A stretch of DNA of 64,000 nucleotides from Escherichia phage kaaroe, in sequence record MN850574.1. The stretch is one strand, 5' to 3'. Shown in pieces: positions 2,198-62,452 of this stretch (its first letter is position 1; the number at the start of each line of letters is the position of its first letter). The position numbers were made by a program, and so were the translations under genes. The notes under the pieces were generated by a model. That model searched no databases. It was not told the origin of the DNA and saw nothing but the letters and a program-made list of their open reading frames with translations.

Positions 2198-5100
2198 TAA
2201 TTTTCCTCTGTGTCGGATTCTTCGGATCGCGTGGATTCCCTATATTATCCTTCAACCGTTTATCTACAAGTTCACGGAACATAGAGAATGTTACCGCCGA
2301 CTGGTCAAACAGTGGACTCATTGCAAATCTTCGTTCGCTTGCTTTAAGTCCGTGGAACAATTCGCTGTTCTCCTGATCATATTCAGGAGGAACCGGAAAT
2401 TCTTCACCAATTAAAGGTGAAGTCAAATATAATGCTTTTCCGGTAAGCGGGTCTTTCTTAATGTTTCCGTCAACGTCAAGGTCTGCCACCCGATCAGGAT
2501 ACACGCTAGGCAATCCGCTGTCAAACTTATAATTTTTCAGAGATTGAATTATAGTCTCGGTGTGCTTCATGCTTAACCCGCTGTTAATGAACATTGTAAG
2601 CAGGGTAACACCGATAAACCCAAAGCCGACAGGATGAACGAATCGCATTACATCATTTGCATAGCGCGAAACTGGCAATGCACTTTTAATCTTCATGGTG
2701 TATTGGCTTCGTGAGCGGTTGATATAGTCGATTGAACTACTCAACAACTCTTTACCACGTACACCAACAAGGATCATCCCTTCAAACGCTGTTTTCTCTG
2801 ATTTGATCACTTGACCTTCTTCGAACCGCCCGATCAGGTTATGAATGGTTACTCGCCAGCGTAGGAGACCACCTTCATATTCCCTTTCAAGATACGTCAC
2901 GTTAGCCCGTCCGGTTGGAGTATAAATCGTGCGACCTACGATATCCTCGTCAATGTTCGTTGAACTAACAACAATATCATACTCTAGTCCGGCTTGTGAT
3001 TCAACCTCAATTTCCACATCTTCATTATAAAGTAACTTAAACAAGAACTTATAAGAAGCCTCCACGCCCTTAGTGGAATAAAAATCTGATTTGCGGGATT
3101 CAAAGAATCTTACTACCGCATCTCGCTTGTTTTTATCTGCATAGATGTTTCGTTTGTTCATCTCTGACCAAAGATACTCATATGCATCTTTCTCGCGTGG
3201 ATATTTGTTTTTAATCAGATTTTTTAGTTTATTATAATATGTTCCTGAACCATCGCTTAAGAATTGCAGATAATATTCAGAGAATTTTCTGAAATTTTCG
3301 TTCTCAAGTAAAAAGCTATCAGGGGTCATCTTATTCAGTAAAGGCCGCAAATCTGGATCTTGCTCTCGATCGTAGTGAACCGGAACCCAGGGAACCTCTC
3401 GAACCTGATTTTGCAATTCAGCAACAAATGCTACATTTGTAGGTTTCCAATATACACCAACCTGATCACGAACACGATAATTAAATTGATAGAATCCTAT
3501 GATCTCTCCTGTGTTTTTATGGAACATTACACCGGATGCATATTGTTTGAATCCTTCAAATTTAACATTGTTAAGATAACAGGTCACGGTCCCTTTATCA
3601 TAAACTTCTCGGTTGACCCTATTTTGGTCAAGAATGCCAGACGTATCAACTTCTTGAGTATAGATAACCTCTGGATAAACAACCAACGGGCGATTATCAT
3701 TTGTGATCCACACACGGACACCGTTTCGACGCATCCATGTATAATCAGCCTCGTTATAATACGCTTGCGGTCCTAACTCCCAAATACGCAAATCATCATA
3801 ACTTGCTCTGAAAGTAGTTTGATGTATTTTCTTATCAGTTAGATAAGTTGGCTCCTGAGAATATTTTACAGCTTCTCCCAATTCATACTTCTCGGCAGTT
3901 TCTGGATCAGGTAAAATGCTTTCGAAGTGATGATTATAATGGCTTATGAACACCTCATCACCATTGGTTGACATATTACTGAACCCATGCTGAATATATT
4001 CCCTTTCCTGCGGAGTGTTGCCAAATACTCTCTGAAAAGACAGACCATCACTCCCTATTAAGTATACACCCGCATCATCTGACGGAACAACGTTTTCTGG
4101 TTTAGTTGGATCTTGATAACGCTGTTTAACTTCACCCGTAACAAATACAAGCAATTTACCGTCGATCACATCCATTTTCTGAATGACAGCTTTATCATTT
4201 CCTGTTACTCGGATAACATCAGGATCGAATATTTTTTCTCCAAACGTAGGCGAACCCTGTACGGTATCAACAGGAGTATTCTTAAGACGAATCCGGCGAA
4301 TAACATCTTTAGCACCAACCCACAAATAGTCATCACTACACGCCATAGCTTCGGCGTATTTTGTGGTATCACCTGTTAATCTGGAAAATACACCAAAGAC
4401 CTCAACGTCAAAGCCTAAATCGTTTTCGTCACCGACCTTTGCAAAAGTGATCGTATCATCACTAAATCGAACATCGTCCGCGCTCCATCGAGTATCGCTC
4501 GCTTGTCGTCCGTAAAAGATTCGGTCATATCCTAAAACGTAAGTAGTGGTTTTAGACTGATAAACGCATGTACGGGAAACCGGATTGCCTACACGGTCAT
4601 TAAAAGCCTTGTATGCTTTCCATGATTGGCCTTTATCATTTGACACTTTCACGATCGGCTGGAACCGTTCGAAAAGGTACAAAACACCGTTCATTTCCGC
4701 TAACATAGTGCGGTTTATATCAGTACAAACTTTTTCTATGTGGTCCTGTATTTCATGAAAGTTCTCATCAACTACAATGTAGTTTGAGATATTTGTCATG
4801 TTTGCATATTCAGGACTAAAGACAAAATCTTCCTTCATCAATGATGCTTGAATCAGGTCAGTATTAAACTTGACATACTCTCGATTATCGTATGTAAATT
4901 TTTCCTTTATAAACTCGTTTGCAAGGTTGAACTCTCGCATCATAGAAAAATTATATGCGTTTGTTTTAAATGTCTGAAACTCTTCTGTCTCAACCCATTT
5001 ACTTTGTTCAAATCCTTCTGCGGCTACTGCTACACGAAACTTGTAATAATATTCTGGAAAAAGGTTTTTATCCTCAAACCAGTTTTGTTCGGCAGTATAT

Positions 5101-35933: not shown

Positions 35934-36206
35934 ATGCGTAAGATGTTTAAATCCGGTGTTGCCTATGTTTTTAAATCTGAGCAAGCACATAAAGACTTCT
36001 TAGATGATGAATACGAGGGGGTGAAAGATACCTACGAAGTCATCAAGAATGGGTTTACTGTTCTTAAAGTGTCACCTGTTGGTTATGTAAGTGAAATCTC
36101 GGTTGATGGGAAAACATACACCGCTAAAGACTTTGATCCGCGTTGGGAATTTATGCTGCTTCCGTGTGAGCGCATTCTGTTCCGTGCTGTTCAATTAGTG
36201 AAATGA
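35934..36206 (+). CDS. GFxVLKV-family protein, paralog 1 (90 aa)
   Basis: NGFTVLKVSPVGYVSEISVDGKTYTAKDF module shared with next three genes. Confidence 0.55.
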   Translation: MRKMFKSGVAYVFKSEQAHKDFLDDEYEGVKDTYEVIKNGFTVLKVSPVGYVSEISVDGKTYTAKDFDPRWEFMLLPCERILFRAVQLVK

Positions 36207-36220
36207 TAGAGGATTATATT

Positions 36221-36787
36221 ATGGTACAGAAAACGTATAAATTGTATCCGGCTAAGTCTTCAAATGATGCTGTTTTTGAACGAGGTCGTTATTACACTTT
36301 CCGTAATGCTGAGTCCGCAGAGGAATTTGTTAAACGCTACCCACAACATAACAAGTTCCTGTATGGTGTGCTTCACAGGGGCTTTAAAGTTCTTACGGTT
36401 AATGTTATGGGTAAAGTGTATTTGGTAGAAACTCATGATTATGAGGGTGCATCAATCATGATTGATGCAAGCGAGCGCAAATACTTTAAACGCATCACTA
36501 AAAAGCAGTTTGAAGAAATGAAACCAGTTAAGAAAGAAGAATCTCTGGAAGATCTGATTAACTTGTTTGGTAAAGTTCGCTCTATCTCCTTTGCGATTGA
36601 AGATGACATTACCGACAATAAAATCTTTATCAAGAACGCGGAAGACCTGAAAGAGTTCCTTATTGAAAATAGATCTCGGCTGGAAACCTTTCTTGAAAGT
36701 GAAATTATTCGACATGATACCTACGCTAAATTCAGCGCCGATAAAGTAGCTGAACTGAAAGAGATCCAAAAGTCATTTAACGCTTGA
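36221..36787 (+). CDS. GFxVLKV-family protein, paralog 2 (188 aa)
   Basis: RGFKVLTVNV...ERKYFKRITKKQFEEM...LKEFLIEN. Confidence 0.55.
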   Translation: MVQKTYKLYPAKSSNDAVFERGRYYTFRNAESAEEFVKRYPQHNKFLYGVLHRGFKVLTVNVMGKVYLVETHDYEGASIMIDASERKYFKRITKKQFEEMKPVKKEESLEDLINLFGKVRSISFAIEDDITDNKIFIKNAEDLKEFLIENRSRLETFLESEIIRHDTYAKFSADKVAELKEIQKSFNA

Positions 36788-36812
36788 CATGATGAAACGG
36801 GAGTAGTAAGAT
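36784..36812 (+). promoter_or_regulatory. early promoter (PeSL-like); -35 overlaps stop codon of upstream gene
   Basis: TTGACA 36784-36789, -10 TAAGAT 36807-36812, IR GGGAGTAGTAAGATACTCCC. Confidence 0.65.
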
Positions 36813-36843
36813 ACTCCCATCTAAACAACGAGAGGATTATATT

Positions 36844-38022
36844 ATGGCTAAATTCTTTGAAGGTCATTACTATGCATTCCGTGAAGGCGGTAAAGATGAG
36901 TTTCTAGACTTTTCTCGCTATTCAATTATTCTGACCGATGCTTCGCGCCGTGGTCATATTCGGGTTGCTGAAATCGTAGAAAAGGGCTTTAAAGTATTAG
37001 AAAAAGATGACCACGGTCATGTTATTACTATTGAAGCTGGAGATGTAGTTTATTCCGCTGAGGATATCGTTTATTATTGGTCTACTATGATTATGCACAA
37101 TGAGCGCAAATACTTTAAACGTATCTCAAAAGAGGCATACGAAGCGATGAACAAGAAAGAGGATGCAATGCCGACTTACTTTGAAAAAGGTAAATGTTAT
37201 TCGTTTACCCCAGAAGGTTTGCAAGAATTTAAGCGATTCTGGGGAGAGCATGACCCAGAGCACAAAGAAGCCATGAAACTTGTTGATTTTGTCGAATATG
37301 GCTTTTTAGTTGAAGAAGAATTGCACGGATCAGCTACCATGATCACCGCGAAAGGTGAAACCGTCAAGGCGGACCGTTTTTGTGATCAATGGAATTGCTT
37401 GTTTGACGGTAGCGAATTTGAATACTTCGCGGAAATCACGAAACAACAATTTCATTCTATGCAAGCGGATGGTCAGAGATTTAAAGTAGGTGAACGCTAC
37501 AAACCAAATCAGCATAATTTGCCATATTGGTTTACCGCTGAAACTGTATCAAGTCATGTTGTTGAAATTGTTCAAAAGCTGGGACAAGGATTTAAGGTAA
37601 CTAAAGTAGATGATTATGGAAGTGTTGACGCGGTTGAAATTGATGGTGTAGAATATACACCGAAATCTTTCGGTCTTTGCTGGTATCACTTGATCAGCAA
37701 TGATGAACGTTATAACTTTGTTGAACTGCCATCTGAACCGGAAGAAGCACTAGAAGATCATGATCATCTGTCTGAACTGGTTAAGCTGTTTGGTGATCTG
37801 CCGGATGGTGTAGGCGTGGCGGTAATGGGTGAAGGTGCTGTTATCCGAAACCTGAAAGACTTTAAAAAGTTCTTGATTGACATGCTGCCTAAACTTGATG
37901 ATAATCTAGATACAGATATTCAGAATCGCAAAGAAATTGTTAAAGAGACTGAAAAAGAGATCGAAGAGATTCGAGCAATTCGCCAGAAGGTGAAAGCAGT
38001 AAAGAAAAAAGTTAGTGCTTGA
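36844..38022 (+). CDS. GFxVLKV-family protein, paralog 3 (392 aa, internally duplicated module)
   Basis: Two copies of GF(K/L)V...DG..Y module, NERKYFKRISK, LKDFKKFLIDM and Lys/Glu-rich C-terminus. Confidence 0.6.
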   Translation: MAKFFEGHYYAFREGGKDEFLDFSRYSIILTDASRRGHIRVAEIVEKGFKVLEKDDHGHVITIEAGDVVYSAEDIVYYWSTMIMHNERKYFKRISKEAYEAMNKKEDAMPTYFEKGKCYSFTPEGLQEFKRFWGEHDPEHKEAMKLVDFVEYGFLVEEELHGSATMITAKGETVKADRFCDQWNCLFDGSEFEYFAEITKQQFHSMQADGQRFKVGERYKPNQHNLPYWFTAETVSSHVVEIVQKLGQGFKVTKVDDYGSVDAVEIDGVEYTPKSFGLCWYHLISNDERYNFVELPSEPEEALEDHDHLSELVKLFGDLPDGVGVAVMGEGAVIRNLKDFKKFLIDMLPKLDDNLDTDIQNRKEIVKETEKEIEEIRAIRQKVKAVKKKVSA

Positions 38023-38046
38023 CATGCGAAGGGAGTATGCTATAAT
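38019..38046 (+). promoter_or_regulatory. early promoter (PeSL-like); -35 overlaps stop codon
   Basis: TTGACA 38019-38024, TATAAT 38041-38046, IR GGGAGTATGCTATAATACTCCC. Confidence 0.65.
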
Positions 38047-38076
38047 ACTCCCACTTAACAACGAGAGGATTATATT

Positions 38077-38571
38077 ATGTGGGTACAAGATGTTTGGTAT
38101 ACTGTAACTAAAGAAAACCTTGACGCATTCAGCGACCAATCTTGCGCTAATAGCTCAATTGCTGGTATACTTACTGATGTGTTTGGTGGTGTAGATAAAA
38201 TTCGTTTTAAAGTTGTTGTTAGTTCGCTGGGTCAGGTGAAAGATCTTTACACCGAAGATAAAGACCTTGATCTTGAACTTCGTCTTCGTATTGATAATGC
38301 AAGTCTAGGTTATTGGTTTGAAGATAACGAATATGAATACTTCACGCCAGCAATTAAAGTTTTTGCGACTAAACTGGAAGCTGTACTGAATCTCCGACCA
38401 ATTAATGTTGACGGATACATTATCAAAAATATTCAGGATTGGGAGTTGTATCTAGATCAGGTTATCCGAAATAGTAAGCAGGAAGCCGCTAATAAGAAGC
38501 GACAAGAGATTAAACAGCTTAAAGCTGAACTAGAAGCTAAAGAAAAAGAATTAGCAGAACTGGTAAAATAA
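38077..38571 (+). CDS. hypothetical protein with coiled-coil C-terminus (164 aa)
   Basis: ORF behind promoter; C-terminal KQLKAELEAKEKELAELVK. Confidence 0.55.
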   Translation: MWVQDVWYTVTKENLDAFSDQSCANSSIAGILTDVFGGVDKIRFKVVVSSLGQVKDLYTEDKDLDLELRLRIDNASLGYWFEDNEYEYFTPAIKVFATKLEAVLNLRPINVDGYIIKNIQDWELYLDQVIRNSKQEAANKKRQEIKQLKAELEAKEKELAELVK

Positions 38572-40521: not shown

Positions 40522-40549
40522 TTGACAACATGATTAGCTAATGTATAAT
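40522..40549 (+). promoter_or_regulatory. early promoter TTGACA-16-TATAAT
   Basis: -35 40522-40527, -10 40544-40549, leader GCTCACATCGAAAACAACGAGAGG. Confidence 0.65.
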
Positions 40550-41738: not shown

Positions 41739-41891
41739 ATGTGGACTTTACTGATTTGGGAAACTGAAAACGCACAAGTAGAAATCCGTGAATACGAATA
41801 CCTAAGCCCAGCTTATCTATTAGCATCTCGCGGTGGTTACTATAAAGCGCAGATTGTAAACGAGTTCGGGGTAATTGAATATGAGTTCTGA
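41739..41891 (+). CDS. small protein (50 aa)
   Basis: ATG with AGGAGAATCAAAT RBS behind promoter. Confidence 0.4.
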   Translation: MWTLLIWETENAQVEIREYEYLSPAYLLASRGGYYKAQIVNEFGVIEYEF

Positions 41892-42384
41892 TACATACGG
41901 CAAACTACGCTATGCCGATATTAAAGATTGTGATATGGTTAACGGTGAGGGAGTGAGAGTCTCCCTTTACGTTACCGGATGTTCACACGCATGTGATGGT
42001 TGCTTTAATGCTAGCCTACTCAATCCTAAGAACGGGGAACCATTCACCGATGATACAATGGGATTGATTCTGGATCTGCTTAGACCTGATTTTATTCAGG
42101 GGCTAACATTCTTAGGTGGCGATCCACTGTATAAACGCAATTTAAAGGGTGTACAGCGGATCATCGATGAAGTAAAATCATGGATGCCAAATAAAGATAT
42201 TTGGCTATGGTCCGGTTATACCCTTGACCAATTGAATGATGAGCAAAGAAAAATTGTAGAATCAGTTGACATGTTCATCGATGGGCGTTATATTAAAGAT
42301 ATGCCAACGAAGAAGCCGTGGCGGGGATCTGACAATCAAGTACAATACAAGATTGTTAATAGTATTCCAGTGAAAATTATTTGA
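41881..42384 (+). CDS. nrdG: anaerobic ribonucleotide reductase activating enzyme NrdG (radical SAM)
   Basis: CSHACDGC (CxxxCxxC) radical-SAM cluster motif; similar to T4 NrdG. Confidence 0.85.
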   Translation: MSSDTYGKLRYADIKDCDMVNGEGVRVSLYVTGCSHACDGCFNASLLNPKNGEPFTDDTMGLILDLLRPDFIQGLTFLGGDPLYKRNLKGVQRIIDEVKSWMPNKDIWLWSGYTLDQLNDEQRKIVESVDMFIDGRYIKDMPTKKPWRGSDNQVQYKIVNSIPVKII

Positions 42385-42394
42385 GGTGATTATT

Positions 42395-42922
42395 ATGGAA
42401 TGGGAAGTTGGTAAAACTTACAAGATTGAATGCGAAGCGTCGAAAGCCGAACTGACTAAATTTTCGTCGTCTATTAACAGATGTATTGTTGACTTGTTGG
42501 CTGGTCGCCCGTTTAGGGTAGAAGACCTTGACGATGATGGTGATGTTAGAGAAATTACTATTATTGGTAGTGATTTCGACTCTATGACGTTAAAAGAATC
42601 CCCTATTGGTTGTTCTGGTGTGTGGTTTTGGTCGGGTGAGCGTCGTTTCTTTACCGAAGTTACTATTGAACCTAAGATTCCAGATTCAGAAGAAAAAGAA
42701 GAAGACCTAACTTTAGAACGCCTGGGTCTGCTTATGGAAGCCTACGACATTCAGTTGATCGATAAGATGGGGTTACATAATAGCATTGCCAAAATTACTA
42801 CCCTAGAAGGTATTAAGAGCGTACTGGATGGTATGCCTAGCCGGATCGGTGCTATCAGAGAATACAAACAAACGCGCGACCGTATGATCCAATTAGAATC
42901 ACGTATCAAAAATGAGAGATGA
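42395..42922 (+). CDS. WExGKTY-family protein, paralog 1
   Basis: N-terminus MEWEVGKTYKIE; coiled-coil C-terminus; first of four tandem paralogs. Confidence 0.55.
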   Translation: MEWEVGKTYKIECEASKAELTKFSSSINRCIVDLLAGRPFRVEDLDDDGDVREITIIGSDFDSMTLKESPIGCSGVWFWSGERRFFTEVTIEPKIPDSEEKEEDLTLERLGLLMEAYDIQLIDKMGLHNSIAKITTLEGIKSVLDGMPSRIGAIREYKQTRDRMIQLESRIKNER

Positions 42923-42926
42923 TATT

Positions 42927-43391
42927 ATGAAATGGGAAGCTGGTAAGACCTATGCGTGGAAAGATGTAAAAGATGCAAACCAATTTTTTAAATGGTATGA
43001 TGTTGATTATTTGAAATATCTGCGATTACCGTTTAAAGTTGCGTCGGTTGATGCGAAAAAAGGATACGTGCGGTCTGTTTATCTTCATGATGGAACTTAT
43101 ATGAGTTCAACCGATGTAGGTCTATCTTGTTGGTTTCTGGATCATGACCGTAGCAGATTTGAAGAAATTATTATTCCAGAAGAATCTAAATTAATTGACC
43201 TTCTCAAATTGGCGATGGATAATTATAAAATTCGCTTTGAATGCAAATCACATGCGGCTATCGGTGCTAACGCCTTGCGTCATATCTCCAGTTTTGAAGA
43301 GTTGAAAGATTTTCTTGACAAAATGCCGGAAAGAGTGCAAGCTATACAGGAAGCTGAGAAAGCATTAAACGAACTTGATAAAATCGGTTAA
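42927..43391 (+). CDS. WExGKTY-family protein, paralog 2
   Basis: MKWEAGKTYAWKD; C-terminal ALNELDKIG. Confidence 0.55.
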   Translation: MKWEAGKTYAWKDVKDANQFFKWYDVDYLKYLRLPFKVASVDAKKGYVRSVYLHDGTYMSSTDVGLSCWFLDHDRSRFEEIIIPEESKLIDLLKLAMDNYKIRFECKSHAAIGANALRHISSFEELKDFLDKMPERVQAIQEAEKALNELDKIG

Positions 43392-43403
43392 GGGGAATAT
43401 ATT

Positions 43404-44228
43404 ATGAAATGGGAAATTGGTAAAACTTACACTTGGAAAGATGAAAACGCGAAAACTGAGTTTATTACTAACGGAGAAGGTGTTCTTTCTCCACTTAACA
43501 GCGATATCAGTGCAGCTATTGGTGACAAGCCATTTACCATCATCGAGATCGAGGGTAACGGTTGGATTGATGCAATAGAGCTAGACGGTGTTTATCATAC
43601 GGCGAAAACTGCTACAGGAAAAGACATTTGGACTGCAACATATTTCTTTAGTCCATTCGATAGAAAATTCTTTCGTGAAGTTGAAGAAGTTCCCCAGAAA
43701 TGGGAAGTTGGTAAAACTTATACTTGGAAAGATGCGAATGCTATGACCGACTTCTGTCATTATGCTGAAAACGTATCTAACCTTAATTATGTTATTGCAC
43801 GAGCAATAAATTATAGACCTTTTACTGTTAAAAATGTTAGTCCATGTGGGCAAGTTAATGTAATTGAAATTGATGGTAAAGACCATACTCTAATGAGTGC
43901 AACCGAAGATAGCGACCATAAAGGAACTAGCTGGTTTATTGATTCTGATAGAAAATTCTTTCGTGAAGTAGAAGAATTGGAAGTTATAACCACTGATTCT
44001 AAGATCGTTGGACAGTTGAAACGTCTGTTTAGTAGTCGTTATGGCCTGACAATGGTTAAATTTAGCGAAGCAAATGAAGGTAAAACCTTTGAACGTTTCG
44101 ATGATTTCATCGCAGCACTTGACAAGATGGACGAAATAATGCAAGATCGCCAGAAGATTAAAGACCTTCAAGAAGACATTAAACGTCGTGAAGTTGAATT
44201 TTTGATTGGTAAAGAGCGAGGTTGGTAA
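43404..44228 (+). CDS. WExGKTY-family protein, paralog 3 (internally duplicated)
   Basis: MKWEIGKTYTWKD and second copy QKWEVGKTYTWKD, each followed by RKFFREVEE. Confidence 0.55.
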   Translation: MKWEIGKTYTWKDENAKTEFITNGEGVLSPLNSDISAAIGDKPFTIIEIEGNGWIDAIELDGVYHTAKTATGKDIWTATYFFSPFDRKFFREVEEVPQKWEVGKTYTWKDANAMTDFCHYAENVSNLNYVIARAINYRPFTVKNVSPCGQVNVIEIDGKDHTLMSATEDSDHKGTSWFIDSDRKFFREVEELEVITTDSKIVGQLKRLFSSRYGLTMVKFSEANEGKTFERFDDFIAALDKMDEIMQDRQKIKDLQEDIKRREVEFLIGKERGW

Positions 44229-44229
44229 T

Positions 44230-44706
44230 ATGTTTGTTGTTGGCATGACCTATCAGTGGAAAAACGAACAAGCGCGTAAAGCCTTTGCAACCAGTGATGC
44301 GAATCGTGTGATCTCCGAGTTTATCGGGGACCGTCAGTTTAAAGTCTTAGCTATTGATTCATCTACTATACCTGAATATGTTTCTGTGATTGAAATCGAT
44401 GGTAAGGCTTACCAGTGTCCAGACAATGAAAAGGTTTATCTTTATGCTTGTAATTGGTTTTCACCTACCGAAGATCAATATTTTAAAGTAGTATCAGCAG
44501 AACTATCATCCGAAGCAATGATGCAACAATTCTTCAATAACTACGAAGTTTCTGTGCGTCGCTATGGCGAAGAAGAAGTGTTTAAAATCGATGATTACAA
44601 TCAGTTTAAACGAGTATTCGCCACTAAGTTGCAGCGTGACTTTGAACGTGACCAACGGATCAAGGAACTGGAAGAAGAACTAGAAAGATTAAAGGCTGAG
44701 AAATGA
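44230..44706 (+). CDS. WExGKTY-family protein, paralog 4
   Basis: MFVVGMTYQWKNEQARKAF; C-terminal LEEELERLKAEK. Confidence 0.55.
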   Translation: MFVVGMTYQWKNEQARKAFATSDANRVISEFIGDRQFKVLAIDSSTIPEYVSVIEIDGKAYQCPDNEKVYLYACNWFSPTEDQYFKVVSAELSSEAMMQQFFNNYEVSVRRYGEEEVFKIDDYNQFKRVFATKLQRDFERDQRIKELEEELERLKAEK

Positions 44707-44972
44707 TCGAGATATACGGTATACCGAAAGAGGCTTATCATTGTTATGGTTGTATTAGTGCAATGAAGCTACTGGATGATCTGGGTATTCCGTATACACT
44801 TAAACCAGTATTCAAGCAGGTCGGGGTTGACATTATTCCCGACCGTGATATGATTGAAGAACTGGCGGGGAGGCTGAACTCAAAGAGCCTCCGGTTTGTA
44901 TACCCCCAGATATTCATTGACAACGAGCACATTGGAGGCTATAAAGAACTGAGGGCGATTTATGATTATTGA
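44703..44972 (+). CDS. glutaredoxin-like protein (NrdH-like)
   Basis: CYGC redox motif near N-terminus; ...IFIDNEHIGGY... glutaredoxin-fold signature. Confidence 0.65.
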   Translation: MIEIYGIPKEAYHCYGCISAMKLLDDLGIPYTLKPVFKQVGVDIIPDRDMIEELAGRLNSKSLRFVYPQIFIDNEHIGGYKELRAIYDY

Positions 44973-45120
44973 GAATTTAGTTTCGGTATTCATTATTGCT
45001 TTATTTGCTATAATGGCTTTACCGTTGAAGAAGTGTAAACACTGTAACGGAACAGGATTGCGTGGTGATGGGTGTTGCGCTCATTGTCATGGATCTGGTA
45101 AAGTAAGTATCATTAAGTAA
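44962..45120 (+). CDS. membrane-anchored miniprotein with DnaJ-type zinc finger (52 aa)
   Basis: N-terminal TM helix then CKHCNGTG and CAHCHGSG (two CxxCxGxG repeats); below track cutoff. Confidence 0.45.
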   Translation: MIIENLVSVFIIALFAIMALPLKKCKHCNGTGLRGDGCCAHCHGSGKVSIIK

Positions 45121-45141
45121 TTCTTGAGTGAGGAATATATT

Positions 45142-45429
45142 ATGTTAGTACACAATGCAATCGCACACATGGTTTATTCTCGATTTGGGCGCATGGAAGA
45201 AATCAATATTACCGACGCAGATTTAGATCTGATGCAAGTCGAAGGCCAGACATATCTGAAAAATAACGGCGTGAATATCGGTAAAGCGCGTGTGCGTGAA
45301 TTGTTGGTTGAATATATTCTCTCTGAATTTGGCATTAGTGCTTTCGGTGTGAAAGAGATTGCACCTAAGCGCGAAATTTCTGATAAAATGATCAAGAAAT
45401 GCCAGAAAGAACGACGTAAGGGTTTCTAA
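45142..45429 (+). CDS. hypothetical protein (95 aa)
   Basis: ATG with GAGGAATATATTATG RBS (track ORF begins TTG 45124). Confidence 0.5.
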   Translation: MLVHNAIAHMVYSRFGRMEEINITDADLDLMQVEGQTYLKNNGVNIGKARVRELLVEYILSEFGISAFGVKEIAPKREISDKMIKKCQKERRKGF

Positions 45430-46898
45430 TGAAGATTGAAACATTAATCGCATTGCCAGCGGCGGGGAAAACTGATGCTATACTTTCCCACGTCCTAGAG
45501 ACAAAAGAAAAAGCGGTTATTGCTTCGCCATCTCGTGTTTTAAGTGAACAATCTTACAATAAGTTTAAAAGAATGGGCGGTCGTGCTGTCTTGATTGATA
45601 GCACAAGACTAAGAAGCCTTAAGACAGTGCAAGCGTCGATAATGCAATCAGTTAAAGATGGTGCTGATGTGATATTCATTACACATACAGCGTTATCTAA
45701 TATGGAACGTTCAAAAATGTTTGGTGATTATGCTCTTTACATTGATGAAGTTCCTCAACTGGTTGAATTTAATGAGTATCCGTTTAAGTCTAATCTTGAA
45801 CTTATCACGAAGCATTGCGAACCAATCGCCGACGAATCGGAATGCCTACAGAACTTAGTTCTAAAAGACTCTGAGAAGGCCGCTATCAAAGAAAAGATAG
45901 AAAGTGCGAAGGATGGTACTGATATGATCGATTCTTCTCTTAGAGGGCTTTATGAGGCGTTATTAGAGAAGAAAATCAACGTTATGGTAAAACATAACGA
46001 AGGACACCGGAAGAATGGGTCGAAAATTGTTTTCTTGAACGATAACAAACACGGTACGTGGGGAGACTTTAAAAAGGTTACGATAGCATGTGCAAATCTC
46101 TTTGATACATATAGTGGGAAGTATCTACGATACTATGCAAATTGCGATTTTGTTCCGAGTGCGCTAGAATCCAGACTATATTTCAAAGAGTATAAAAATA
46201 CAGATAGAGTTAATATCATCCTTATGACGGACTCTGAACGATGGTCGCGTCACCAGTCAGAAACAAACAATACCTTTGAACGTCTTGTTGATATGGTTAA
46301 AAATGAATGTGGCGATGACTTCATTTATACCGTGAATCGGGACCGTGAAGCGTGTACAAATGGTATTGGTGAGCGGATACCTTACGGGTCTTATGGTCTT
46401 AACTCTTACATTCATCATAAAAATGTTGCTGTGATGTTCAGCTTTAACCCTCAACGATGGGAGATTGATATTTTAAAAGGTCTTGCTAATAGTTGTGATC
46501 TCCCGACAAACGAGTTTTTGAAAGCGCGTCATGTGTCTGATTATCTGGAACCAGCATTTCAATTATGTTTGCGTTGTAACCTGAGAGACAACGAGAGCAA
46601 GGAGAATGTTAATCTATATGTTCCTGATTGGGCGTTGGTGGATTATCTAAAAACGTTTCTGCCTAATGCCAATGTAATAACAGATCGAATGATTCCGCTA
46701 GAATGTGGTGAACGTAAAGGGCGAAAATCATTTAAAAAGATGTTCGACTTTAACGAGCAAGAGAATGCAAGATTTAACGGATTTAAGTACCGCATGAAGA
46801 AAAAAGGAAAAACTCTTGATCCGTCTGACGGCGAATCTGTAGAGATGGTTAGAGTGTGGATAACTAAGCAAAGAAAGTATAATGGTAATGGGGAATAG
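45429..46898 (+). CDS. P-loop NTPase, helicase-like (function unknown)
   Basis: 489 aa; Walker A ALPAAGKTD at residues 8-16, Walker B ALYIDEV; occupies the position of alpha-gt in T4. Confidence 0.6.
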   Translation: MKIETLIALPAAGKTDAILSHVLETKEKAVIASPSRVLSEQSYNKFKRMGGRAVLIDSTRLRSLKTVQASIMQSVKDGADVIFITHTALSNMERSKMFGDYALYIDEVPQLVEFNEYPFKSNLELITKHCEPIADESECLQNLVLKDSEKAAIKEKIESAKDGTDMIDSSLRGLYEALLEKKINVMVKHNEGHRKNGSKIVFLNDNKHGTWGDFKKVTIACANLFDTYSGKYLRYYANCDFVPSALESRLYFKEYKNTDRVNIILMTDSERWSRHQSETNNTFERLVDMVKNECGDDFIYTVNRDREACTNGIGERIPYGSYGLNSYIHHKNVAVMFSFNPQRWEIDILKGLANSCDLPTNEFLKARHVSDYLEPAFQLCLRCNLRDNESKENVNLYVPDWALVDYLKTFLPNANVITDRMIPLECGERKGRKSFKKMFDFNEQENARFNGFKYRMKKKGKTLDPSDGESVEMVRVWITKQRKYNGNGE

Positions 46899-60039: not shown

Positions 60040-60357
60040 ATGGATAAGAAACCAACAAGTTTAGAAGAAGCACACGGCTTGATTCAAGAAGCAATGAAGA
60101 CAGTTATTCAGGAATTGATAATTGTTGATGAAGAGGGAGAGCATCATATTGTCTATATTCATAATGTTGAATACGATCCAGACACTAAAGGTATTGTGGT
60201 CGACTACTCCACGCCGTCAGATCGTGATGTGGTATATCCACACGTCATTAAGGCGTTAACCGCGCAGATCAAAGAAGCAGAAGAAAAGTTGAAAAAAGAA
60301 ACTTTCTGGTATAAACTCAAGACCTTTGTTATGCGTGTAGTTGGGGGCTATGTATGA
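60040..60357 (+). CDS. 40: gp40-like protein (by synteny between uvsX and 41)
   Basis: 105 aa; positional call. Confidence 0.5.
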   Translation: MDKKPTSLEEAHGLIQEAMKTVIQELIIVDEEGEHHIVYIHNVEYDPDTKGIVVDYSTPSDRDVVYPHVIKALTAQIKEAEEKLKKETFWYKLKTFVMRVVGGYV

Positions 60358-61766
60358 TTAAAACTATCTTTTCACAGTTGATTTACAATGGCGCATTCTT
60401 TACGAATGTATGGCCTCACCTTAAAGCGGACTACTTCACCGAAGACGAAGAAAAACTGATTTATAAGCTGATTAAAAAGCACGTAGACGAATATTCCAAC
60501 ATTCCTACGCCAACTGCATTACATATTGCTTTAGACAAGGAGAGAGGCAATCAGACAACATATGAAGGGGCTAAAACTCTTCTTGATTCGCTTGAGAATA
60601 CACCGGAAGACCTTGATTGGTTAATGAAGGAAACCGAAAAATTTATTCGTGACCGTGCCATGTATAATGCAATGTCACGGGCGCTAGAGATTCAGGCGAA
60701 CGCACAACTACCAAAAGAGAAACAGAATAAGAAATTGCCGAGTGAGGGTGCTATTCCTGAGATCATGCAGGAAGCACTATCAATTACGTTTGATTCTGAT
60801 GTAGGTCATGACTGGTTTAATGACTTTGAAAAACGATTCTTGCTATATCAGACTAAGGCGAATAAGATCCCGTTTAAGCTGCCGATGTTGAATAAAATCA
60901 CGAAAGGAGGGGCGGAAAGAAAAACGCTAAATGTGTTGCTTGCTGGTGTAAATGTTGGTAAATCGCTTGGATTATGTTCTCTTGCTGCGGATTATATGGA
61001 ATGTGGTTATGATGTATTGTATATCTCAATGGAGATGGCAGAGCATGTCGTAGCCAAACGTATCGACGCAAACTTGCTTGACATTACATTAGATGAATTG
61101 GATAATGGTAATGTTTCTTTTGCGGAATATTCCGCACGTATGAAGCGTGTTAAGAATAAGAAGATCGGAGATCGTCCGGTTGGAAAATTGATGATCAAGC
61201 AGTATCCGACTGGTGGCGCGAACTCCAATCACTTTGAGGCGTTAATGAATGAATTGCGACTCAAGAAACAGTTTAAACCTGATGTTGTGATTGTTGACTA
61301 TCTGGGGATTTGCGCATCGTCTCGCTTGCGTGTATACTCTGAAAATAGTTACACACTAGTTAAGGCGATTGCGGAAGAACTGCGAGGATTTTTTGTTAAG
61401 TGGGATGTTGTTGGTTGGACTGCGGCACAGACTACCCGCGCGGGTTGGGATGCTTCCGACCTTAACATGAGTGATACCGCTGAATCAGCAGGTCTTCCGG
61501 CTACTGCCGACTTTATGTTGGGTGTTATCGAAACCGAAGACCTGGCTAAAATGGGCGTCCAACTCATGAAGCAGATCAAGTCTCGTTACGGTGATAAGAA
61601 CTATTATTCACGGTTTAACGTTGGTGTGAAGAAAGGCAATCAGCGTTGGTATGAAGTACCAAACCAGATCGCAGATCAGGAGAATGCACAACTTAAACCA
61701 CAAAGCGCACAGCAAGCCGAGAAACGAGAAAAACTCGACGAGCTAGCAAATAACATGACTTTCTAA
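60354..61766 (+). CDS. 41: replicative DNA helicase gp41 (DnaB-like)
   Basis: 470 aa; Walker A AGVNVGKS, YISMEMAE, IVDYLGI; collinear with T4 gp41. Confidence 0.9.
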   Translation: MIKTIFSQLIYNGAFFTNVWPHLKADYFTEDEEKLIYKLIKKHVDEYSNIPTPTALHIALDKERGNQTTYEGAKTLLDSLENTPEDLDWLMKETEKFIRDRAMYNAMSRALEIQANAQLPKEKQNKKLPSEGAIPEIMQEALSITFDSDVGHDWFNDFEKRFLLYQTKANKIPFKLPMLNKITKGGAERKTLNVLLAGVNVGKSLGLCSLAADYMECGYDVLYISMEMAEHVVAKRIDANLLDITLDELDNGNVSFAEYSARMKRVKNKKIGDRPVGKLMIKQYPTGGANSNHFEALMNELRLKKQFKPDVVIVDYLGICASSRLRVYSENSYTLVKAIAEELRGFFVKWDVVGWTAAQTTRAGWDASDLNMSDTAESAGLPATADFMLGVIETEDLAKMGVQLMKQIKSRYGDKNYYSRFNVGVKKGNQRWYEVPNQIADQENAQLKPQSAQQAEKREKLDELANNMTF

Positions 61767-61816: not shown

Positions 61817-62452
61817 ATGATCGCTAATGCTTTACCGCCAAAATGGATCGTAAGTCGCTTTTATACTCTCAAGGAAGGTAACGCACCTGATGGTCGTCCG
61901 ATCCGAGATCTGTTTCTGGAGATGACTACAGCCGAAGCACAGTTTTATAATGATCTGACAGACGATAAGCCATTTCTCGTAAATTCGGTGGACCTTGATG
62001 GCAATGTCACATCAATCATCACACATGGTGGGGGAGTGAAAAATATTACTTCTCTGCGTGATCACGGTTGGGAAATTGCTTGTGTATTTCCTGCGGATGT
62101 ACGCGGATTCTTTGATGAGGTATCTGATATTAAAGTAAATGCACTGGAACCATATGACGAGATCCCACCACTGAAAGAAGAAAAAGAGTTGACACCGGAA
62201 GATGTAGATAGTACACTACACCCCGACCTATTTAAGAAGATTAGCGGTTTATGGACTGTTACCCTGTATCCAACCGCATTAGGTCTAGAATTGGGTATGC
62301 CAACTTATTCTGATATTGATAATTGGAATAAGAGCATTGATAAAGATGTTGAAAAACAGCGAAATAATGCTAAAATGCAACTTAAAGAGAAACGCAAAGA
62401 TCTTGAACGACAACTGAAAGAAACAAAACGTTTGCTTTCTACATTCGCTTGA
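61817..62452 (+). CDS. hypothetical protein (211 aa)
   Basis: ORF with GGAG RBS; coiled-coil C-terminus. Confidence 0.55.
   Translation: MIANALPPKWIVSRFYTLKEGNAPDGRPIRDLFLEMTTAEAQFYNDLTDDKPFLVNSVDLDGNVTSIITHGGGVKNITSLRDHGWEIACVFPADVRGFFDEVSDIKVNALEPYDEIPPLKEEKELTPEDVDSTLHPDLFKKISGLWTVTLYPTALGLELGMPTYSDIDNWNKSIDKDVEKQRNNAKMQLKEKRKDLERQLKETKRLLSTFA

Follow-up and report, generated by a model that had tools for sequence, protein, structure and literature searches.

What are the four small genes that follow one another between nrdG and nrdH in Escherichia phage kaaroe (sequence record MN850574.1), and why do they differ as they do among related phages? They lie at positions 42,395 to 44,706 of a stretch of 64,000 nucleotides (nt), called the window in the following, and are named here genes A to D. 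A preliminary description of the window had taken them for a rapidly duplicating, diversifying family of a binding-type module, for example inhibitors with different host targets. Our analysis makes it very probable that A to D belong to the GoF (ComC-alpha)/Frd.2 family of T4-like phages, which makes them new additions, so far without annotation, to a family described only recently. For the array as a whole we lean towards the explanation that A to D are real, co-transcribed, probably early genes and old GoF/Frd.2 paralogues, in which a variable barrel would sit on a constant scaffold.

The gene array between nrdG and nrdH

The region 42000–45200 shared 98.6–98.9% identity with Escherichia phage RB49 and the phages nearest to it, and a megablast search with it returned 58 matching records, all of them Krischvirus phages of Escherichia coli or Shigella. 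By nucleotide identity, the window is thus assigned to Krischvirus, the RB49-like phages. A to D correspond to RB49p051, p050, p049 and p048, which lie between nrdG and nrdH in RB49 as well and carry the label "hypothetical protein" there, as they do in every public record inspected. Open reading frame (ORF) calls and the RB49 annotation agree with the preliminary description on four consecutive ORFs on the + strand. The features of the array, with lengths in amino acids (aa), are the following.

42395–42922, + strand: gene A, 175 aa, RB49p051; N-terminal barrel about 42395–42673, C-terminal domain 42704–42919
42674–42703, + strand: acidic linker of gene A, EPKIPDSEEKEEDL
42927–43391, + strand: gene B, 154 aa, RB49p050; N-terminal barrel about 42927–43178, C-terminal domain 43179–43388
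43404–44228, + strand: gene C, 274 aa, RB49p049; barrel C1 43404–43688, barrel C2 43695–43979, C-terminal domain 43980–44225
43406–43444, + strand: 5' boundary repeat of the barrel modules, coding for KWE[IV]GKTYTWKD; second copy at 43697–43735
43659–43688, + strand: 3' boundary repeat, coding for DRKFFREVEE; second copy at 43947–43976, 29 of 30 nt identical
44230–44706, + strand: gene D, 158 aa, RB49p048; N-terminal barrel about 44230–44502, C-terminal domain 44503–44703
41881–42384, + strand: nrdG, 5' flank of the array (RB49 annotation), used as divergence control
44703–44972, + strand: nrdH glutaredoxin, 3' flank of the array (RB49 annotation), used as divergence control

Each of the four genes is preceded by a Shine-Dalgarno-like sequence (GAGGTGA upstream of gene A), the intergenic gaps measure 1–12 nt and the stop of gene D overlaps the start of nrdH. 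A to D are predicted to be co-transcribed as one unit. The most likely start of gene D is the ATG at 44230 (MFVVGMTYQWKN) and not an internal start at MTYQWKN, because a GAGG Shine-Dalgarno sequence precedes it and the same start is annotated in RB49; D would therefore carry a degenerate copy of the full WEVGKTY.WKD start motif. The WExGKTY-type starts of the preliminary description hold for the array in this way, but the variant MTYQWKN start is unlikely.

Pairwise BLASTP alignments extended over 170 aa for A and B (E 3e-11), 161 aa for B and C2 (E 1e-11) and 166 aa for C2 and D (E 5e-7 to 2e-4), with 25–33% identity among the paralogues. All four matched phrog_5347 end to end, with E values from 1e-57 to 1e-92 (1e-66 for gene A, 1.5e-59 for gene B). 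By these alignments A to D are homologous over their whole length, and their similarity goes well beyond the shared start motif.

Gene C does hold the module twice, each copy ending in RKFFREVEE, as had been noticed before. Its modules, at 43404–43694 and 43695–43985, are 49% identical in protein, both end in DRKFFREVEE, and a hidden Markov model (HMM) of the N-terminal module found two matches in the gene (E 1e-41 and 1e-44). A repeat search and DNA alignment showed that the two copies of the 5' boundary repeat share 37 of 39 nt; genes A (from 42397) and B (from 42929) open with weaker copies of it. Between the boundary repeats, the interiors of the C1 and C2 modules are about 50–55% identical at the nucleotide level, as read by eye from the DNA alignment.

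Family membership and predicted fold

The GoF/Frd.2 family was described in 2025 by Kim et al. as an "LSm-like fold" family whose members have a five-stranded "LSm-like" barrel at the N terminus, to which C-terminal domains of various kinds are linked (PMC12152347). RB49, Krischvirus, paralogues and duplications are not mentioned in that paper, nor are the array and its polymorphism, and there "tandem" refers to the reporter assay only. An hhalign comparison of the paralogue profile with T4 GoF (141 aa) gave a probability of 93.8% and an E value of 1.8e-7 over GoF residues 3–91. T4 GoF matched phrog_5347, the PHROG of A to D, over residues 4–137 of 141 (E 6.5e-7), and A to D matched phrog_622, the PHROG containing T4 GoF and Frd.2 (E 3e-10 for gene A). 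Weaker matches in the PHROG scan were to families labelled "goF mRNA metabolism modulator". When 1.84 billion representative proteins were searched with the profile of the window paralogues, only 144 clusters were returned at E ≤ 0.001, among them the T4 GoF cluster P0166, whose protein is 65% identical to GoF (E 1.1e-7), and P0232, a relative of Frd.2 (E 1.2e-4). The match to MotB.1 was weak (E 0.007–0.02 on a six-sequence database). The subfamily of A to D itself, phrog_5347, occurred only in the 58 Krischvirus records of 50,697 phage genomes, at the sensitivity of BLAST. Scans of A to D against Pfam and NCBIfam gave no family above threshold and only chance-level coiled-coil or DUF matches. 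A search of the PDB with the family profile gave nothing significant (best E 0.02, a ribosomal protein) and found no solved structure of any relative. The T4 goF orthologues in 734 phage records are themselves unusually variable among T-even phages, most being only 60–90% identical to T4 GoF.

Structure prediction with AlphaFold2 yielded models with barrel and C-terminal helix for D and C. The model of D has a mean predicted local distance difference test score (pLDDT) of 85 and strands at residues 6–10, 37–43, 50–56, 59–62 and 85–90, with two helices inserted after strand 1; the barrel is followed by a helix (94–104), a hairpin (107–120) and a long helix (123–157). In the model of C (mean pLDDT 74) two barrels are modelled well and a helix follows. 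The predicted build of A to D is therefore an N-terminal five-stranded SH3-like barrel of about 85–95 aa (two in C), followed by a linker and then by about 70 aa of C-terminal domain, in which a helix, a beta-hairpin and a long charged helix succeed one another. The linker is gappy and often acidic in the alignments, and the pLDDT of the D model dips at residues 91–100. The terminal helix of the AlphaFold2 models comprises 35–40 residues, and 40–54% of the residues of the helices are charged.

The N-terminal domain forms a bent five-stranded antiparallel sheet of 80–95 aa whose nearest solved folds are SH3-like of the FeoA type, in line with the family as defined by Kim et al., who list FeoA and IdeR SH3-like domains and Hfq as structural neighbours of the GoF N-terminal domain (PMC12152347). 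For the C model, Foldseek ranked the Mib repeat of Mind bomb 1, which is SH3-like and tandem, first among PDB structures (E 4e-4), and FeoA and SloR next. Among predicted viral structures the fold recurs in uncharacterised T4-like phage proteins from phages of Proteus, Serratia, Morganella, Aeromonas, Edwardsiella, Pectobacterium, Citrobacter and Klebsiella. The barrels are mostly acidic, with isoelectric points of 4.4–5.2 as against about 10 for the Hfq core.

Barrel alleles and array variants in Krischvirus

The six genes from nrdG to nrdH were extracted from 16 Krischvirus genomes to compare the array within the genus. GenBank phage records were used, because the 3 loci on 2 contigs that IMG/VR yielded would not have sufficed for a population analysis. 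Selection was measured as the pairwise Nei-Gojobori ratio of nonsynonymous to synonymous differences per site (pN/pS).

The barrels of A, B, C2 and D each occur as two or three deeply diverged alleles, with 54–73% nt identity and about 43–80% protein identity between them: two alleles for the N segment of gene A (48–49% protein identity), two for that of B (43–46%) and three for that of D (55–79%). The adjoining C-terminal segments and the flanking genes are mostly 91–100% identical in nt; the controls nrdG and nrdH range over 96–99% and 95–100%, and the C-terminal domains are 84–100% identical in protein, that of gene B 97–100%. The comparison of the window with phage FL04 shows this alternation along the array, with nt identities of 99% in nrdG, 59% and 93% in the N segment and C-terminal domain of A, 58% and 97% in those of B, 99% in C1, 54% in C2, 96% in the C-terminal domain of C, 72% and 96% in the two parts of D, and 98% in nrdH. 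Phage kvi differs from the window only in the N segment of B (57% nt identity), and phage Brandy mainly in that of D (67%). Nine haplotypes were found among the 16 phages, with all six combinations of B and D alleles present; the barrel alleles reassort freely and independently. The expectation of a diversifying family was thereby borne out, with deeply diverged, reassorting N-terminal barrels in A, B, C2 and D and constant C-terminal halves. Such swapping of barrel cassettes within a genus appears not to have been described before.

All four genes are under purifying selection, with the barrels less constrained. For the C-terminal domains of A to D, pN/pS was 0.04–0.13 (0.06 for gene A), compared to 0.07 for nrdG and 0.10 for nrdH; within alleles of the barrels it was 0.21–0.35. 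Because these values are far below 1, A to D are real, functional genes. Between barrel alleles, synonymous differences per site (pS) amounted to 0.49–0.64, which is near saturation, as compared to 0.05–0.26 elsewhere. The barrel alleles are therefore ancient or imported and did not arise in recent bursts of amino-acid replacement. With the synonymous sites between alleles near saturation too, we rejected the idea that positive selection alone made the barrels diverge. Gene conversion between paralogues was rejected as the source of the alleles: alleles at the same position are 43–80% identical in protein and 25–38% identical to other paralogues. The second C2 allele is nearly equidistant (39–42% to the first C2 allele).

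The duplications that gave rise to the array are old, because the paralogues are 25–33% identical (49% for C1 and C2), the order of the four genes is kept in most of the genus, and the alleles at each position are closer to one another than to any other paralogue. The word "rapid", which the preliminary description had used for them, does not fit these values.

Natural variants of the array look, from their sequences, like recombination products at conserved module ends. In phage AV108 gene C consists of C2 and the C-terminal domain, through a deletion that joins the start of C1 to C2 at the 5' boundary repeat; this repeat is a likely recombination handle. E26-type proteins, P0059 and its relatives and metagenomic proteins have a single barrel, C1, joined to the C-terminal domain, which would be the expected product of a deletion between the two 3' boundary repeats. 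Phage KFS-EC is without gene A. On the metagenomic Krischvirus-like contig L021 (Logan assembly SRR11185258) the array is collapsed to positions 3001–3938, with a chimera of an A barrel and a C-terminal domain (154 aa) directly after nrdG and two short ORFs of 64 and 105 aa where gene D normally lies; as this is a single assembly, it calls for caution and may reflect either a true deletion or an artefact of assembly.

Further members, function and known systems

The barrel HMM matched five more genes of the window besides A to D.

35934–36206, + strand: family gene of 90 aa, barrel only (N-module HMM)
36203–36787, + strand: family gene of 194 aa (N-module HMM)
36844–38022, + strand: family gene of 392 aa with three barrels and a C-terminal domain, RB49p058, "frd.2 / goF mRNA metabolism modulator"
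38077–38571, + strand: family gene of 164 aa (N-module HMM)
61817–62452, + strand: family gene of 211 aa (N-module HMM E 3e-6), directly 3' of the gene 41 helicase (60354–61766)

Four of them form a second cluster (35934–38571, + strand) upstream of nrdD. All five genes align with A to D in the barrel and, where they have a C-terminal domain, in that domain as well. PHROG matches agree with the superfamily for four of the five: the second cluster matched the goF family phrog_8944 (E 2e-102 and 3e-214), phrog_16115 and phrog_15067, and 61817–62452 matched only its own phrog_16187. The fold match "Dc2, phage ECD7" (211 aa) in BFVD is presumed, by length only, to be the orthologue of the latter gene. 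The preliminary description had covered one of the two clusters, without reference to the known family. In T4, the mRNA affected by the mutant GoF(D25Y) is that of gene 41, the gene whose counterpart in the window adjoins 61817–62452. With at least nine family genes and thirteen barrels in one 64-kb stretch, Krischvirus offers a natural experiment on the family.

The nearest candidate promoter for the A to D unit is a predicted sigma-70-type, that is early, promoter at 42266–42294 on the + strand, in the 3' end of nrdG (TTGACA-17-TATATT, 11 of 12 matches in a consensus scan). No late promoter TATAAATA was found within 16 kb of the array by consensus scan, which argues against a virion or late role. 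Further upstream, just after nrdD, the segment 40484–40549 holds a GC-rich, terminator-like hairpin with a T-run (AGCCGATCCGAAAGGGTCGGCT TTTTCG) and, 17 nt past it, a sigma-70 sequence with 12 of 12 consensus matches (TTGACA-16-TATAAT) at 40522–40549. This arrangement resembles the "promoter-early stem-loop" cassettes described around shuffled ORFs of RB49-type genomes.

For the relatives in T4, some functional information exists. GoF is an abundant early protein, dispensable in the laboratory, that runs as monomer and dimer, and reporter mRNA is stabilised only by the gain-of-function mutant GoF(D25Y), wild-type GoF and MotB.1 doing little (PMC12152347). In a genome-wide dCas13d CRISPRi-ART knock-down on a laboratory host, no T4 gene of unknown function other than frd.2 was fully "Fit" (PMC11879866).

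That within the four-gene array the barrel varies and recombines while the C-terminal domain is kept points to the barrel as the ligand-binding module. As a mechanism we tentatively propose that a variable barrel binds the ligand and is carried by a constant C-terminal scaffold, which probably self-associates, and that the proteins act in early host takeover. The barrel would be the specificity module and bind a variable macromolecular ligand, and the C-terminal domain would self-associate or dock onto a conserved partner. A protein or peptide ligand would be more likely than RNA, because the barrels are acidic and their neighbours among solved structures are protein-contact SH3-like domains. 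Members of the genus would exchange barrel cassettes by homologous recombination at conserved flanking sequences, namely those coding for the WEVGKTY start and the (D/E)R.FF.EV end and the DNA of the C-terminal domain, so that each phage would have its own combination of specificities. Early in infection the proteins may have a non-essential part in taking over the host or in modulating gene expression, the role that has been proposed for T4 GoF. Inhibitors of different host targets, as first suggested, are a reasonable guess in view of the polymorphic alleles, the acidic surface and the SH3-like fold.

A number of points weigh against this mechanism and the explanation it belongs to. The proteins A to D are known from sequence and predicted models alone, and from these we infer the kind of barrel ligand, the oligomerisation, the early timing and the biological role. 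Early expression, although probable, is read from consensus promoter matches alone. The C-terminal domain of the C model has low confidence (pLDDT 39–70). Where the preliminary description had the proteins end in coiled-coil segments, the long terminal helix is indeed predicted and a C-terminal coiled coil is plausible on the models, but the heptad periodicity was marginal in B and D and not significant in A and C: of 2000 shuffles, 54 (B), 101 (D), 669 (A) and 987 (C) scored at least as high as the real sequence. With their high charge the C-terminal helices may alternatively be single stable helices. Saturated synonymous divergence alone does not show selection for diversity, and mosaicism is common in plastic regions of T4-like genomes. 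Finally, when T4 GoF was used to pull down partners from uninfected E. coli, the two dominant bands were both GoF itself, as monomer and dimer (PMC12152347).

A more specific version of the proposed mechanism, to which we assign a low probability, has the array as a polymorphic specificity locus whose ancient cassettes are kept by balancing selection, each recognising a different strain-variable factor of the host or of a competitor phage. The variation of the barrel does argue for a search among strain-variable partners, and not among conserved RNAs alone. Were this true, the GoF/Frd.2 family would be a modular toolkit for counter-defence or host takeover rather than a set of RNA chaperones, and the locus would open a first way to learn what T4 GoF and Frd.2 do; GoF has been a puzzle of T4 genetics since suppressors of rho mutants were isolated decades ago, and its family was recognised only in 2025. 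Otherwise the array would represent ordinary paralogue expansion and mosaicism in a plastic region of a T4-like genome. A locus for counter-defence or competition between phages, in which each barrel neutralises or decoys a different strain-variable immunity protein or competitor factor and the allelic cassettes are kept by frequency-dependent selection, overlaps with the mechanism proposed above, is a special case of the explanation we favour and puts the inhibitor idea of the preliminary description more sharply. It is doubtful as it stands. The polymorphic, independently assorting N-terminal barrels on a constant C-terminal domain speak for it, as do the varying numbers of genes and modules (KFS-EC without A, a single barrel in C in AV108 and E26, the A/C chimera in L021), the small, acidic proteins with probably early genes, and the dispensability of T4 goF and motB.1 in laboratory strains. 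No named anti-defence protein was matched, however, in general scans, which included no search aimed at anti-defence libraries; pN/pS within alleles is below 1 (0.21–0.35), and the fitness effect of T4 frd.2 on a laboratory host (PMC11879866) indicates a general rather than strain-specific role for that member at least.

An alternative that we likewise consider unlikely holds that the barrels are true LSm-type RNA binders and that the paralogues act as RNA chaperones or mRNA stabilisers, each binding other transcripts of phage or host directly and guarding them against decay or premature 3' ends, as has been suggested for GoF(D25Y) on the gene 41 leader. A to D are homologous to GoF, GoF(D25Y) raises the half-life of reporter RNA post-transcriptionally and Hfq is among the structural neighbours of the GoF N-terminal domain (PMC12152347); the family gene at 61817–62452 lies directly 3' of gene 41. 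At the position of GoF D25, B has W (about 42990–43000), C2 has Y (about 43755–43765) and C1 has Asn, although this correspondence was transferred by hand through a gappy, variable loop, so that the equivalence is uncertain and the indication weak. The acidic barrels and their protein-contact SH3-like neighbours make us prefer a protein ligand to this reading.

The original ComC-alpha proposal, transcription antitermination by action on Rho, fits the rescue of T4 growth on rho mutants by goF mutations and the name "transcription antiterminator" in the old GenBank record M89919, but reporter assays show a post-transcriptional effect and the unrelated RNA-binding protein Rop gives the same rescue (PMC12152347); A to D resemble no known antiterminator, and this explanation is highly improbable. 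That A to D are duplicates in decay or without function, ORFs that fill a plastic part of the genome, is hardly credible. Single genes or modules are absent from some phages, but the reading frames are intact in the 16 genomes wherever a gene is present, and purifying selection on the C-terminal domains, which are 84–100% identical across the genus, is as strong as on nrdG and nrdH.

Other features were noted in the surroundings of the array. Just 3' of nrdH, an ORF of 52 aa (44962–45120) codes for a hydrophobic segment near the N terminus and twice for the motif CxxCxGxG (CKHCNGTG and CAHCHGSG), a zinc-finger signature of the DnaJ type; it is hypothetical in RB49 (RB49p046) and a "putative membrane protein" in phage W115. 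Between a 55.2-like gene and gene 55, an ORF of 489 aa (45429–46898) is hypothetical in all records, and its orthologue on contig L021 has a weak DEAD-helicase Pfam mark. The guanine-cytosine skew of the window is negative to about 10 kb and positive from 10000 to 64000, which fits a change of the coding strand at about 10 kb.

Among known systems, FeoA, the SH3-like domains of the DtxR family (IdeR, ScaR, SloR) and the Mib repeat share with the barrels of A to D a structural resemblance only, with 5–16% identity; A to D gave no match to Pfam FeoA (PF04023) and are without its metal-binding histidines. Hfq and the Sm/LSm proteins, from which the T4 family has its published name, have a five-stranded bent antiparallel sheet like that of A to D. 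By contrast, A to D have an acidic surface and show no sign of ring oligomers, the barrel has two helices inserted after strand 1 where Hfq has a helix at the N terminus, and no Hfq chain was present in the PDB fold-match lists for their models. An assignment of A to D to Sm/LSm/Hfq proteins proper, which would call for an Sm fold recognisable against solved structures, ring oligomers and basic RNA-binding faces, was rejected on these grounds. RB49p058 and its neighbours (phrog_8944) come closer: they belong to the same phage and superfamily and have the same build of barrel and C-terminal domain, with several barrels per protein (three as compared to two in C). They differ in belonging to another subfamily, 20–35% identical to A to D, and in being already labelled goF-like in public records.

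With T4 GoF and Frd.2 (NP_049624 and NP_049852), A to D share sequence homology of the N-terminal barrel, including the start motif (FEVNKWYQFKN in GoF, MEIGKKYEL in Frd.2, WEVGKTYTWKD in A to D), and with GoF the motif at the barrel end (GFFDEVEN and RKFFREVEE, respectively). Common to both are also the order of barrel, acidic linker and small C-terminal domain, FeoA and IdeR as neighbours of the predicted fold, and small acidic proteins, encoded in A to D in a probably early region. Unlike the T4 proteins of phrog_622, A to D form a separate subfamily, phrog_5347, that BLAST found in Krischvirus records only, and their C-terminal domain is longer and ends in a helix of 35–40 residues. Whereas goF occupies a single place in each of 734 phage records, A to D form a tandem array of four genes with a two-barrel member, and their barrel alleles are swapped within the genus.

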